DNA of 5,688 bases, taken from a virus (lineage: Duplodnaviria; Heunggongvirae; Uroviricota; Caudoviricetes). The stretch is from the IMG/VR virus record IMGVR_UViG_2681813269_000003, positions 1-5,688 of that record. One strand, given 5' to 3'. This document shows positions 1,972-5,347 of the stretch, one piece after another. The notes under the pieces are model-generated. The model searched no databases and was not told the origin of the DNA. It was given only the letters and a program-made list of their open reading frames with translations. Numbering within the stretch: the first letter of the stretch is position 1; every line of letters begins with the position of its first letter. Both the position numbers and the translations under genes were made by a program.

Positions 1972-1999
1972 ATTCTATCTGCGAAGGTGCGCGAATCAA
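1972..1999 (-). promoter_or_regulatory. Putative sigma70 promoter for the 95-aa ORF and downstream nin/Q genes
   Basis: On the minus strand: -35 TTGATT (plus 1994-1999), 16-nt spacer, -10 TAGAAT (plus 1972-1977). The same hexamer pair occurs in the putative hok promoter. Confidence 0.3.
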
Positions 2000-2016: not shown

Positions 2017-2064
2017 AACAAAAAACCCGCCGAAACGCTGAGAGATCACAGCGATGGGCGGGTT
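2017..2064 (-). terminator. Putative intrinsic terminator at the 3' end of the hok mRNA
   Basis: 8-bp stem 2023-2030 (aacccgcc) / 2057-2064 (ggcgggtt) followed on the minus strand by a U-rich run (plus A-run 2017-2024). The loop is large (26 nt), so this is only moderately convincing. An additional strong 8-bp GC hairpin lies at 2105-2130, immediately 3' of the hok stop. Confidence 0.4.
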
Positions 2065-2139
2065 AAGTGCGGGTGCGTTGAGGATGCCTGACACATCAGA
2101 GGTGGGCGGGGATGGGATCAGCTCCCCGCCCGGTCACTC

Positions 2140-2295
2140 TTACTTCCTGGATTCGTAGTCTACGAAGACAGCGACCTCCGTCTGGCCGGTTCGGATTCGT
2201 ACCTCACAGAGGTCTTTCCTCGTTACCAGTGCCGTCACTATGACGGTTAAACAGATGACGATCAGGGCGATTAACATCGCCTTTTGCTGCTTCAT
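2140..2295 (-). CDS. hokD: Hok-family type I toxin (HokD/RelF-like small membrane protein)
   Basis: 51-aa ORF MKQQKAMLIALIVICLTVIVTALVTRKDLCEVRIRTGQTEVAVFVDYESRK, matching my recollection of E. coli HokD/RelF except for the last few residues. ATG at 2293-2295 with SD AAGGAG 9 nt upstream. Confidence 0.85.
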   Translation of the reverse strand: MKQQKAMLIALIVICLTVIVTALVTRKDLCEVRIRTGQTEVAVFVDYESRK

Positions 2296-2352
2296 AGCCT
2301 GCTTCTCCTTGCCTTTCGGCATGTAAGAGGCTAACCTACATGTGCAAAGCAT
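2140..2352 (-). CDS. mok: Mok-like leader ORF (in-frame N-terminal extension of hok, modulator of killing)
   Basis: In-frame ATG at 2350-2352 with its own SD GAGG about 8 nt upstream gives a 70-aa product MLCTCRLASYMPKGKEKQAM + Hok. This resembles my recollection of K-12 MokC (ML.TCR...KEK.AMKQ..., 69 aa, in frame with HokC). Confidence 0.55.
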   Translation of the reverse strand: MLCTCRLASYMPKGKEKQAMKQQKAMLIALIVICLTVIVTALVTRKDLCEVRIRTGQTEVAVFVDYESRK

Positions 2353-2471
2353 GAAATTGGCCTCAGATTAATGTTAAGCGTCTTGCCGGACGCGTAATGT
2401 TAACTGGGGCTTTTCTCTATCTGCCTTTTGGTGTTCATGCCTGAAGCAGATAGCCTCAAGCACCCGCAGTC

Positions 2472-2501
2472 ATTCTACTTACCTCGCCAATATGAAATCA
2501 A
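2472..2501 (-). promoter_or_regulatory. Putative hok/mok mRNA promoter
   Basis: On the minus strand: -35 TTGATT (plus 2496-2501), 18-nt spacer, -10 TAGAAT (plus 2472-2477). The predicted start near 2466 coincides with the 5' element that is complementary to the mRNA 3' end (2454-2467 versus 2069-2083). Confidence 0.4.
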
Positions 2502-2522: not shown

Positions 2523-3209
2523 TCACTCCTTCTCTTCTTTACCGTAGTGGAGTTGACCAATTTTGATAAGAGGGCGTCCCTGAGATTTGCGGTGTAGATT
2601 GGTATCGCGCAGAGAATACACACAGCCACAATATTCCTGCTGATAGAATTTTTCGCGCTTGCTGATTTCAATCATACGGGACGAGCCGCCCTGCTTGCGC
2701 CAGTTATAATCCCAGTACACCATGCCCGGATAATGCGCGACGGCTCGCCGCCCACAGTCGTTAACCTGCTGCATATTTTTCCAGCGTGAAATGCCCAGTG
2801 AACTGCTGATCACACTGAAACCATTTTCAGCGGCGTACAGCGCTGTCCGCTCAAAACGCATGTCAAAACACATGGTGCAACGGATCCCTCGTTCGGGCTC
2901 CCATTCCATTCCTTTGGCTCGTTCAAACCAGTTGTCTGTGTCGTAATCAGCATCAATAAACGGCACGCCGTGTTGTTCAGCAAAGCGAATATTCTCATCC
3001 TTACGAATTAAATACTCTTTCTGAGGATGAATGTTCGGGTTGTAGAAAAAGATGGTGTAGTCGATTCCCGAGGCCTGAAGCGCCTCCATCACCTCACCGG
3101 AACATGGAGCACAGCAAGAGTGCAGTAGTAGTTTGTTTGCCCCGTTTGGGAGCTCCAATTTGGGCCGTTTGAAATCAGCAACTGTCATAAATATGTTTAT
3201 TGGGGTCAT
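2523..3209 (-). CDS. queH: QueH-like epoxyqueuosine reductase (DUF208 family)
   Basis: 228-aa ORF with the Cys-rich motifs I associate with QueH: [12 protein letters not shown] near the N-terminus, [11 protein letters not shown] centrally, and [12 protein letters not shown] near the C-terminus. Start codon is uncertain: ATG at 3207-3209 or the ATG at 3186-3188, neither with a good SD. Confidence 0.7.
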
Positions 3210-3356: not shown

Positions 3357-3770
3357 TTATTCAGTTCTGGATTTTGTCGCCCTGCGTATCCGCGCTTTCG
3401 CGTTACGCTCAATCTGTATCAGCTTTTCTATATTTCTCCGCCTTTCCTGTTCCTCCTGGCGCAATAGCCTTACATCATCTGCCAGTCTGGTTTCTCTTTT
3501 TGCCACAGAGAGCATCCAGTCAAACGGCTCCACAACCGCACCGCAGATTTTACAGCGGACCTGACGCTCTTTTTCGTCAACCCGTACAGAGGCGTGATGG
3601 CAATATGGTCTTTCCGATGGCTCATAAAGAAAATTAACCTGATTACGAGGGTCATCCTCTTTTACCGGAAATAAAACGATATTGCTTAACTCATCTTGGT
3701 GATGCTGCCAACTTACTGATTTAGTGTATGAGAATGCCAGCGGTAATTGAAGCCTGATAGCTAATTTCAT
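3357..3770 (-). CDS. Hypothetical phage protein with putative zinc ribbon (C-H-H ... C-x-x-C) and basic coiled-coil C-terminus
   Basis: 137-aa ORF with ATG at 3768-3770 immediately after the upstream stop (TGAATG) and a strong SD AGGAGG about 11 nt upstream. Contains YCHH...(15 aa)...CKICG, followed by a Glu/Arg-rich tail (LLRQEEQERRRNIEKLIQIERNAKARIRR). Confidence 0.55.
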   Translation of the reverse strand: MKLAIRLQLPLAFSYTKSVSWQHHQDELSNIVLFPVKEDDPRNQVNFLYEPSERPYCHHASVRVDEKERQVRCKICGAVVEPFDWMLSVAKRETRLADDVRLLRQEEQERRRNIEKLIQIERNAKARIRRATKSRTE

Positions 3771-5308: not shown

Positions 5309-5347
5309 TCTTCCTCTTCCTCTTCCTCTTCCTCTTCCTCTTCCTCT
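5309..5347. repeat. Hexanucleotide tandem repeat (TCTTCC) x 6.5
   Basis: Directly visible: six full tcttcc units plus tct. On the minus strand one frame encodes 12 consecutive Glu (GAG/GAA alternating). Confidence 0.9.

Follow-up and report, generated by a model that had tools for sequence, protein, structure and literature searches.

A probable hokW-sokW type toxin-antitoxin cassette in the nin region of a lambdoid Escherichia coli prophage

The nearest characterised homologue of the locus described here is hokW-sokW of phage Sp5, whose HokW protein is toxic, is located in the inner membrane and is neutralised by sokW (PMC8621323). Upon treatment with mitomycin C, sokW RNA is lost and HokW appears in a RecA-dependent manner, and smaller hokW RNA species were seen by Takada et al. 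(2021; PMC8621323). [quoted passage not shown]

The window, i.e. the whole analysed stretch of 5,688 nucleotides, carries at positions 2017-2501, with hok on the minus strand, what is by its sequence a complete hok/mok/sok type I toxin-antitoxin locus. Every element of the R1 paradigm could be placed in it, from the -10 box through the terminator. In BLAST searches it showed ~92% identity to hokW/mokW/sokW of phage 933W/Sp5 over 417-425 nt, and nucleotide identity was high across the transcribed core with its long Sok hairpin, as expected of the hokW-sokW subtype. The sense hok leader model of Rfam (RF01794) matched over its full length (positions 1-157 of 157) at 2465-2290 on the minus strand, with 117 bits where the gathering score is 59. 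The cassette is flanked by a queH-like gene on one side and by nin-region genes upstream of Q on the other, and it is, with high confidence, an intact hokW-sokW ("intact hokD") type cassette that a lambdoid E. coli prophage carries as a moron in its nin region.

Prophage copies with 100% identity are present in two RefSeq genomes, where the gene is annotated "hokD" and neither mok nor Sok is annotated. That name rests on protein similarity only and, in the absence of the two other annotations, invites the wrong inference of an inactive remnant of the K-12 type. The locus does not fit the sok-less hokD of K-12, since the upstream leader, mok and sok elements are all present. It is complete and, judging from these elements, probably active, as the preliminary description had suggested: the features listed there were all recovered, at or within a few bases of its coordinates, every regulatory element was placed, and the sok promoter block is conserved in the family. 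The kind of cassette is already known and ordinary, and the main value of the analysis is a correct annotation, with little beyond it. Matches to hok/sok occur at a median of 2 and at up to 9 places per E. coli genome.

Elements of the hok/mok transcript

The TTGATT-18-TAGAAT promoter read previously was recovered by a promoter scanner, being among 2 sites found in the region against 0.5 expected. It consists of a candidate -35 box TTGATT (2496-2501, minus strand), an 18-nt spacer and a -10 box TAGAAT (2472-2477, minus strand). A -10-like hexamer (TAGAAT, TATAAT, TATATT or TAGTAT) lies 6 nt from a conserved +1 G in all clades examined, whereas no positional conservation of the -35 box was found among the relatives, which makes the latter the weakest element of the locus. 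The start of the hok mRNA was placed at G2465, where the RF01794 model begins, and the first 12 nt form the tac element GGGUGCUUGAGG (2454-2465, minus strand), which pairs with fbi in the minimum free energy (MFE) structure and is invariant in 66 hokW-type sequences. In the nascent transcript tac is predicted to be sequestered in a metastable 5' hairpin (2437-2463, minus strand; nt 3-13 with 19-29), which is the MFE structure of the first 30-50 nt in in silico folding (-16.9 kcal/mol) and is the counterpart of the metastable structure known from R1 (PMC9841398).

Folding of the full-length transcript, which had been proposed as a check, gave a structure of -191 kcal/mol (z = -8) that holds the tac-fbi helix, the pairing of ucb with the mok Shine-Dalgarno (SD) sequence and a buried hok start. 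The fbi element, CCUCAA(C)GCACCC (2071-2083, minus strand), was defined by the MFE pairing and by per-locus duplex mapping; 2465-2454 pairs with 2083-2071, leaving one bulged C (2077). Of the complementarity between the 5' and 3' ends claimed in the preliminary description, the pairing itself and the single bulge were thus retained, the helix being part of the MFE structure and covarying. Its length was reduced from 14-15 nt to 12 bp plus the bulge, as G2467 and C2466 lie upstream of the family-conserved +1 and have a complement that other clades do not conserve.

The energy of the tac-fbi duplex alone is marginal, 58 of 2000 dinucleotide shuffles being as good (p ~0.03), and it was therefore dropped as proof; the pairing is argued instead from conservation of position and from covariation. 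In 35 leader-bearing relatives from six genera the 5' 12 nt find their best partner 45-56 nt past the hok stop. Among these relatives tac and fbi form 18 distinct combinations, with compensatory changes at positions 4, 7, 11 and 12, and none of 10,000 partner permutations was as good. The covariation was taken from the per-locus duplex mapping because MAFFT sets bulged and unbulged fbi in different registers, so that per-pair counts for tac positions 7-12 understate the pairing. The helix is 89% paired in the 34-sequence alignment. In the 66 hokW-type sequences fbi is nearly invariant, and a few viral copies carry a degraded fbi or terminator. The covariation found here is an independent re-derivation from present-day genomes.

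The fold as a whole appears to be shared by the family. When it was projected on 34 family members, 82.5% of cells paired, compared with 37-44% in slid controls, and pairs with double changes numbered 45, compared with 17-29. A further helix of the MFE structure, between the mok AUG region (2352-2340) and the region preceding fbi (2096-2084), was rejected as a conserved feature: it is only 55-77% paired across the family (helices 7-9), no covariation was detected within the hokW clade, and 9850 of 10,000 permutations were as good.

The ucb, or anti-SD, element GAAAAGCCCC (2406-2415, minus strand) is nearly invariant in the family and has two predicted alternative partners, the mok SD in the closed form and tac in the open form. 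In the full-length MFE structure its C57-C60 pair with the SD at G102-G105, the tac-ucb stem being the MFE structure at transcript lengths of 60-70 nt and also part of the Rfam consensus structure. Unconstrained folding of 3'-truncated mRNAs did not recover the open form as the MFE structure. In the 3'-processed mRNA the metastable hairpin beats the tac-ucb stem by 1.9 kcal/mol (ViennaRNA), so the activation switch is supported by the presence of its elements and not by prediction.

The mok SD GAGG (2361-2364, minus strand), which the sequence shows 8 nt ahead of the ATG, does not vary among the 34 aligned sequences. It precedes a mok frame of 70 aa (2140-2352, minus strand), which starts with ATG at 2352, runs in frame through the hok start and ends on the hok stop, encoding a 19-aa N-terminal extension of Hok; the in-frame leader with its own SD proposed earlier is therefore real. 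Mok is in frame also in mokW, mokC and the Photorhabdus loci, but out of frame in R1 and hokB. The hok SD AAGGAG (2305-2310, minus strand) overlaps the sok -35 box on the opposite strand, and the hok start region lies inside a conserved long-range helix that is 91% paired across the family.

The hok gene (2140-2295, minus strand) is predicted to encode a 51-aa membrane toxin, MKQQKAMLIALIVICLTVIVTALVTRKDLCEVRIRTGQTEVAVFVDYESRK, of the HOK_GEF family (PF01848); the full Pfam profile (1-42) was covered, with 81.1 bits for hok and 80-81 bits for hok/mok against a cut-off of 22. Compared with 933W it shows only synonymous changes and one C-terminal replacement. Of 64 hokW-type viral loci, 63 retain an intact open reading frame, and the pN/pS is 0.48. 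Hok of the window has Tyr47 (TAC, 2157-2155) at the position of the second Cys of HokB-like toxins, a residue that is reported to matter in these toxins (bioRxiv 10.1101/2025.08.07.668861). Given this substitution, the protein may need TadA editing for full toxicity.

Just past the hok stop a GC-rich stem-loop (2104-2131, minus strand), with a GGCGGGG..CCCCGCC stem conserved in the family, is predicted, by analogy with R1 (PMC9841398), to form the protective 3' end of the processed mRNA. The transcript ends at an intrinsic terminator (2020-2064, minus strand) with a stem at 2064-2057/2031-2024 and U6 at 2025-2020, in agreement with the preliminary description. A 23-nt insertion (2057-2035) makes an extra hairpin inside the terminator loop. 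The resulting loop, long (>8 nt) and structured, caused the consensus scanner to miss the terminator, and BLAST matches stop at ~2058-2061 because the insertion breaks the alignments. That the relatives have no terminator was considered and rejected, as the closest chromosomal ones carry the same stem with a TTCG loop. This common form, ACCCGC-TTCG-GCGGGT, is present in 47 of 66 sequences and the form with the insertion is rare; the insertion could change the kinetics of 3' processing.

The Sok RNA and its variable tail

A putative sok promoter, TTGCCT-17-TAACCT (2309-2337, plus strand), has its -35 box at 2309-2314 and its -10 box at 2332-2337. Throughout the family the block CTCCTTGCC..GTAAGAGGCTAACCT is conserved, and it is identical to that of Sp5/933W sokW, in which replacement of the -10 box TAACCT (primer YO-421) abolished the antitoxin activity (PMC8621323). 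Sok, an antisense RNA of ~71 nt (2344-2414, plus strand), was mapped from the annotated sokW feature of 933W and is composed of a start at G2344, a 15-nt 5' tail (2344-2358), a terminator hairpin (2359-2411) and UUUU. Its fold has an energy of -28.6 kcal/mol (z = -4.7), and it is complementary to nt 52-122 of the hok mRNA, spanning ucb, the mok SD and the mok AUG. The locus thus appears to contain a candidate cis-encoded Sok with its own promoter and terminator over the mok initiation region, within the plus-strand interval of about 2330-2420 where it had been expected. The small hairpin noticed at 2378-2393 is the tip of the Sok terminator hairpin. It had been argued that the lack of a conserved sok promoter on alignment to known loci would point to a sok-less locus; the alignment gave the opposite result.

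The 5' tail of Sok falls into a hypervariable segment (2338-2359), one strand of which provides the recognition tail and the other the mok start and codons 2-5. Diversity of this segment is 0.31, compared with 0.00-0.12 over the rest of the transcript, and 16 alleles occur in 80 viral loci; that of the Sok hairpin body within the hokW clade is 0.02. The allele of the window is rare (2 of 80 viral loci) and is not shared with 933W sokW, from which it differs at 7 of the first 16 tail/target positions. Duplexes between the window and 933W are predicted to be weak (-8.8 and -11.0 kcal/mol) in comparison with cognate ones (-22 to -26 kcal/mol). These differences and the weak non-cognate duplexes make the window a distinct allele of the hokW-sokW subtype. 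One genome carries both the window allele (locus L006) and a second intact hokW-type locus (L009); with the target of L009 the window tail gave -3.5 vs -22.3 kcal/mol and is predicted not to pair.

That the Sok tail is hypervariable in prophage copies which are conserved elsewhere is the only mildly new result of this analysis, and this variability is a possible determinant of cross-talk among the many hok/sok copies of E. coli. Tentatively, the 22-nt segment might be seen as a specificity cassette kept diverse by selection, each Sok neutralising only its own hok mRNA. If this were true, co-resident or superinfecting lambdoid phages with near-identical cassettes would be insulated from each other, or would compete via addiction modules that do not cross-protect. 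Alternatively, the diversity may reflect neutral drift of an unconstrained segment.

Proposed mechanism and biological role

The conserved anatomy of the locus and the R1 model (PMC9841398) suggest how it may operate, from the synthesis of the mRNA to the action of Sok. A weak constitutive promoter (-10 box at 2477-2472) would give an mRNA of ~445 nt from G2465, in which the metastable hairpin would hold tac during synthesis. In the finished mRNA tac (2465-2454) would be paired with fbi (2083-2071), the CCCC of ucb would hide the mok SD and the hok start would be buried in the long-range helix. Owing to these three closures the full-length RNA is proposed to be stable, untranslated and unbound by Sok. 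Slow 3' exonucleolytic trimming would then strip the terminator and fbi, allowing tac to move to ucb and thereby freeing the mok SD. The 15-nt single-stranded 5' tail of Sok might pair across the mok AUG and SD region, blocking mok and hence the translationally coupled hok, with the duplex open to RNase III. Should the supply of Sok fail because the element is lost, transcription is shut off or the prophage is induced, the pool of processed mRNA would be translated and the 51-aa Hok would damage the inner membrane. Toxicity and neutralisation are proposed for the window allele by analogy with Sp5 hokW-sokW, the Hok proteins being 1 aa apart.

If the cassette is active, the timing of lysis, the phage yield or the retention of the prophage by the lysogen would be affected. 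Following the Sp5 system, its most likely role is to speed up, to a modest extent, the lysis of induced cells and the release of phage.

Plausibly, the cassette might instead stabilise the prophage in an addiction-like manner. A post-segregational killing module of this kind, which like R1 hok/sok would be lethal to cells from which the prophage is lost or excised without phage production, is possible, but we consider it rather improbable. The anatomy of the window matches that of the R1 system, the 933W record labels its locus 'prophage maintenance', and hok genes are ~4-fold enriched in prophages according to the preprint (bioRxiv 10.1101/2025.08.07.668861). The same source, however, reports intact chromosomal hokA/B/C without post-segregational killing or activation by rifampicin, the uninduced deletion strain of Takada et al. 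had no growth phenotype (PMC8621323), and a single-copy chromosomal element is seldom lost by segregation.

It is unlikely that the cassette serves abortive infection or phage exclusion, in which the shut-off of transcription by a lytic phage would deplete Sok and Hok would kill the cell before progeny mature. A system made up of a stable mRNA and a labile antisense RNA suits the sensing of such a shut-off, and R1 hok/sok on a high-copy plasmid cut the plating efficiency and plaque size of T4 (cited in PMC8621323 and in bioRxiv 10.1101/2025.08.07.668861). That effect, though, was dependent on high copy number, the slow 3' processing might not be fast enough with only one copy of the locus, and a section heading of the preprint states that hok is not enriched near defence systems (bioRxiv 10.1101/2025.08.07.668861).

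Least of all is the locus expected to be a structurally intact but silent passenger of the nin-region mosaic heading to the state of K-12 hokD, for although inactivation is seen in many chromosomal hok loci (fbi is gone from K-12 hokC, and everything upstream of 2309 from K-12 hokD), a few viral copies are degraded in fbi or the terminator and toxicity may depend on editing at Tyr47, every regulatory element is intact in the window, tac and fbi are invariant and nearly so, the reading frame is maintained with the pN/pS given above, and the nearest homologue, Sp5 hokW-sokW, is active.

Comparison with known systems

The hok/mok/sok locus of plasmid R1 (examined in the copy from p1658/97) has the same order of elements as the window. 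Both share the alternative pairings, i.e. tac-fbi, tac-ucb, ucb-mok SD and the metastable hairpin, and in both the sok promoter overlaps the hok SD and a terminator hairpin follows fbi. The two differ in that mok and hok are in different frames in R1 but share one in the window, the tac of R1 is one nt shorter and its fbi is in a different register, the Sok hairpin is longer in the window (~71 nt), and R1 Hok is only 44% identical to HokW (PMC8621323). R1 is plasmid-borne and its post-segregational killing has been demonstrated.

The chromosomal hokC/mokC/sokC (gef) shares with the window an in-frame mok (69 aa), an identical tac and the same promoter layout, and the bulged type of fbi is found in intact hokC copies of other Escherichia species. 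It differs in a shorter Sok hairpin, another sequence where the sok -10 box would lie and a chromosomal instead of a prophage location. In K-12, IS186 interrupts hokC, which has no fbi partner.

The hokD (relF) gene of the K-12 Qin prophage occupies the same neighbourhood, between replication/nin genes and Q, and its Hok is 90% identical to that of the window. Homology extends over 2309-1900 (81%), covering the hok SD and reading frame, fbi, the terminator and the downstream flank, whereas the hok promoter, tac, ucb, the mok start, the sok -10 box and Sok are missing and relBE lies upstream instead. As the homology begins only at 2309, K-12 hokD is, on this alignment, a truncated form of the window cassette, which bears out its earlier use as a sok-less contrast.

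The closest likeness is to hokW/mokW/sokW of the Stx2 phages 933W and Sp5 (VT2-Sakai) (AF125520; PMC8621323), the DNA between the -10 box and fbi being ~92% identical. The loci differ in the upstream -35 region, by a 26-nt indel, and in the terminator hairpin after fbi, which is present in the window and absent from 933W, so that the experimentally studied copy is without the terminator that most relatives have. The position in the genome is also different, the window cassette lying in the nin region between queH and Q-proximal genes and that of 933W beyond the tail-fibre genes, close to the right end. The Hok proteins are distinguished by a single residue, R50 in the window and E50 in 933W, and the two loci have in common a 70-aa in-frame Mok and identical tac, ucb, SD sequences, sok promoter, Sok hairpin and fbi.

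Gene content and neighbourhood of the cassette

Read on the minus strand, the 5688-nt window corresponds to the early-right/nin region of an E. coli prophage of the lambdoid type. A prophage in E. coli FDAARGOS_943 matches it at 98.7% identity, and positions 2000-2520 are 100% identical in both FDAARGOS_943 and FDAARGOS_944. The order annotated in FDAARGOS_943 is Cro/CI-like, YdaT-like, hypothetical, ydaV (ATP-binding protein), DUF977, hypothetical, QueH, "hokD", 95-aa hypothetical, DUF1367, DUF1364 and DUF1133, followed by tRNAs and lysis genes. The cassette is flanked by a 95-aa ORF (1603-1890) and, directly upstream of the hok promoter, by the gene of a full-length homologue of the epoxyqueuosine reductase QueH (2523-3209, minus strand; Pfam QueH, 220 bits).

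Three further features of the region were recorded. The 95-aa ORF, which has no Pfam match, is preceded by a second promoter-like site with the hexamers of the hok promoter (TTGATT-16-TAGAAT, 1972-1999, minus strand), located directly downstream of the hok terminator. Positions 3698-3731, within a 137-aa minus-strand ORF (3357-3770), contain a perfect 34-bp terminal inverted repeat of IS1 (GGTGATGCTGCCAACTTACTGATTTAGTGTATGA) but no IS1 body; the sequence of the FDAARGOS_943 prophage is different here, and its complete IS1 instead sits at a position matching window ~72-81. A perfect hexanucleotide repeat, (TCTTCC) x 6.5, occupies 5309-5347 in the gene that lies upstream of the ydaV homologue; in FDAARGOS_943 the repeat has another number of copies and other flanks, and 29 of the 72 window-wide differences cluster there.

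The hok ORF and the mok-like leader ORF with its own Shine-Dalgarno (SD) sequence, both noted in the preliminary description, were located on the minus strand in a mechanical ORF list. The mok ORF encodes 70 aa (2352-2140), the last 51 codons of which constitute Hok (2295-2140), and each product scores ~80 bits on Pfam HOK_GEF (cut-off 22). The mok SD (GAGG, 2364-2361) stands 8 nt before the mok ATG and the hok SD (AAGGAG, 2310-2305) 9 nt before the hok ATG, while the TTGATT-18-TAGAAT promoter was also reported by a promoter scanner (2501-2472, minus strand). Rfam RF01794 matches 2465-2290 on the minus strand over the whole model length (117 bits, gathering score 59) and gives G2465 as an objective mRNA 5' end. 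This family is named "sok" (sok antitoxin), yet its model has the orientation of the hok mRNA leader, with a consensus ending at the hok AUG; it describes the tac-ucb open form of that leader, not the antisense RNA, so a strand call from RF01794 would misplace Sok on the wrong strand.

The Hok Tyr47 codon TAC and the following G (2154-2157, minus strand) form the TACG motif of TadA A-to-I editing (Tyr to Cys), and the family alignment shows hardly any variation in TACGAA. According to a preprint, the matching codon in hokC/D/E mRNAs is edited to Cys, so the window's Hok may depend on editing for its full toxicity.

Folding of the hok mRNA

The RNA 2465-2018 folds with -191 kcal/mol (z = -8 versus shuffles), and its fold contains the expected pairing of tac, the 5' end element, with fbi, its 3' partner: nt 1-12 (2465-2454) pair with 2083-2071, C2077 being bulged. 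In the same fold the mok SD is base-paired to the CCCC of the anti-SD element ucb (nt 57-60), and the region around the hok start pairs with the 3' end of the coding sequence. By energy alone the tac-fbi helix is barely above chance, an equally good partner for the 5' 14-mer occurring in 58 of 2000 dinucleotide shuffles of the remaining transcript. Relatives comprised 47 chromosomal loci (one genome per species), the K-12 loci, 933W and an authentic R1-type plasmid copy, leaders being found with the Rfam model. For almost all loci with a leader, the 5' 12 nt find their best partner 45-56 nt past the hok stop. The 18 distinct tac/fbi combinations include compensatory changes at tac positions 4 (U-A to C-G with U-G intermediates, several clades), 12 (G-C to A-U, several clades), 7 (U-A to C-G, hokB) and 11 (G-C to A-U, Citrobacter), and none of 10,000 partner permutations was as good as the real pairing. 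Projection of the window's minimum free energy (MFE) structure on a 34-sequence alignment, from one sequence of which the structure itself was derived, gave 82.5% paired cells (37-44% in slid controls) and 45 double-change pairs (17-29 in slid controls). Position and compensatory changes decide the matter, and argue that the pairing exceeds chance. The helix thus supported is 12 bp with a bulge rather than the 14-15 nt originally proposed, since G2467 and C2466 precede the conserved +1, and other clades do not conserve the bases after fbi that are complementary to them. Many hok/sok loci are present in Photorhabdus genomes, some of them as tandem copies ~630 nt apart (556-703 and 1185-1333 in L033; also L044), and in these loci tac and fbi form a perfect 12-bp helix that lacks the Escherichia bulge.

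According to the R1 model, tac must be able to pair in three ways, with a metastable partner a short way downstream, with ucb and with fbi (summarised in PMC9841398), and by folding the window encodes all three. In the first 30-50 nt the MFE structure pairs nt 3-13 with 19-29 (-16.9 kcal/mol); at 60-70 nt it is the tac-ucb stem together with a 13-22/40-49 hairpin; in full-length RNA tac-fbi prevails. In 3'-truncated RNAs the unconstrained MFE retains the metastable hairpin, and the tac-ucb form, when imposed, is only 1.9 kcal/mol less favourable and leaves the SD free. A switch of tac to ucb after 3' truncation is thus plausible in these models, not predicted outright.

The terminator previously noted is present as a stem (2064-2057/2031-2024, minus strand) followed by U6. 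It is the ACCCGC-TTCG-GCGGGT(U6) form, found in 47/66 sequences and so common among hokW-type loci (those like hokW/mokW/sokW of phages 933W and Sp5), with a rare 23-nt loop insertion. A GC-rich stem-loop at 2131-2104 (minus strand) appears to match the protective 3' stem-loop of processed R1 mRNA. The insertion (CCATCGCTGTGATCTCTCAGCGT; 2035-2057, minus strand) folds into its own small hairpin in the terminator loop, is shared by the window, one E. coli locus (L006, one mismatch) and one viral contig, and raises the predicted stability of the 3' structure from -9.2 to -20.2 kcal/mol; it could slow 3' processing. The experimentally studied 933W/Sp5 hokW (L001, ~2905-2965) differs in having no terminator hairpin after fbi. 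Its homology to other hokW-type loci stops a few bases past fbi and the next gene is ~55 nt on, so the mRNA 3' end must arise differently there.

The Sok antisense RNA and its variable tail

The antisense RNA, expected on the plus strand around 2330-2420, was placed through the 933W record, in which sokW is annotated as a 71-nt antisense RNA; carried over by pairwise alignment, Sok occupies 2344-2414. A promoter precedes it (TTGCCT, 2309-2314; 17 nt; TAACCT, 2332-2337; plus strand), G2344 lying seven nt past the -10 box, and was missed by the scanner because TAACCT fits only 3/6 consensus positions. The family conserves the entire block CTCCTTGCC..GTAAGAGGCTAACCT, with -10 variants TAACCT, TAATCT, TATCCT and TACCTT. 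In the "pro-less" construct of Takada et al. 2021 (PMC8621323), primer YO-421 changes the hok-sense TAGGTTAG (complement of CTAACCTA) to CCGGCTCG, whereby protection was lost and then partly restored by sokW in trans; the window is identical to sokW at the replaced bases. A locus lacking a conserved sok promoter had been held to be probably inactive; here the block is conserved and the -10 box identical to the one mutated in sokW. In the predicted fold of Sok a single-stranded 5' tail of 15 nt is followed by a long hairpin, the tip of which is the small hairpin seen earlier at 2378-2393, and by UUUU (-28.6 kcal/mol, z = -4.7). Sok is complementary to mRNA nt 52-122, covering ucb, the mok SD and the mok AUG.

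The 22-nt segment 2359-2338 encodes the 5' recognition tail of Sok on one strand and the mok ATG with codons 2-5 on the other. No other part of hokW-type transcripts is hypervariable among the viral loci (L054-L133): within the hokW clade the nucleotide diversity of the segment (0.31) equals that of untranscribed upstream DNA, the remaining transcript showing 0.00-0.12. Sixteen alleles occur in 80 loci, the window's in two, and no covariation of the segment with its MFE pairing region was found in this clade. Predicted tail-target duplexes reach -22 to -26 kcal/mol for cognate and -3 to -16 for non-cognate pairs; by prediction, the tails are orthogonal to one another. Two intact hokW-type loci that differ in their tails are present together in E. 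coli ECMA0423, L006 with the window's allele and L009, on whose target the window's tail is predicted to reach -3.5 kcal/mol. The hypervariability could reflect either selection for antidotes that do not cross-react or a relaxed constraint.

Maintenance, possible roles and relation to known loci

In 80 hokW-type loci from viral contigs (66 unique sequences) tac is invariant, fbi is identical in 53 of the 66, and the Hok ORF is 51 aa long in 63/64, with pN/pS of 0.48 and replacements mostly in the last five residues. The preprint 10.1101/2025.08.07.668861 reports hok genes to be ~4-fold enriched in prophages and most tested homologues to be toxic. The molecular mechanism of the window's cassette can be inferred by analogy, from its conserved anatomy and the experiments on R1 and Sp5. 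For the biological role of the hokW subtype the only direct data come from Sp5: after RecA-dependent induction sokW RNA vanishes and HokW appears, and in a deletion of the locus growth arrest comes later and phage release falls by half (PMC8621323). Abortive infection is a possible role. Post-segregational stabilisation of the prophage is another, although intact chromosomal hok loci are reported not to mediate post-segregational killing (10.1101/2025.08.07.668861).

The earlier observation is confirmed, and its interpretation as a complete hok/mok/sok locus is supported. In Erwinia sp. CGal63 and Kalamiella sp. (L046, 250-397; L049, 362-389) CRISPR-DR4 repeats precede the hok mRNA leaders by ~95-240 nt, so there the hok/sok locus adjoins a CRISPR array. 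The mok ORF is in frame with hok in the window, mokW, mokC and the Photorhabdus loci, but out of frame in R1 and hokB. K-12 hokC has IS186 directly downstream and has lost the fbi partner of tac. The alignment of K-12 hokD (Qin prophage) with the window is confined to 2309-1900, beginning at the hok SD and taking in the ORF, fbi, the terminator and the flank downstream; on this alignment K-12 hokD is the 5'-truncated form of the window's cassette at the equivalent prophage position, the window having the intact form. The transcribed core of 933W differs from that of the window mainly in the Sok-tail/mok-start segment, and otherwise by synonymous changes and one C-terminal replacement in Hok. 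The cassette is of a known kind and a known subtype, its toxin gene being already annotated in RefSeq.
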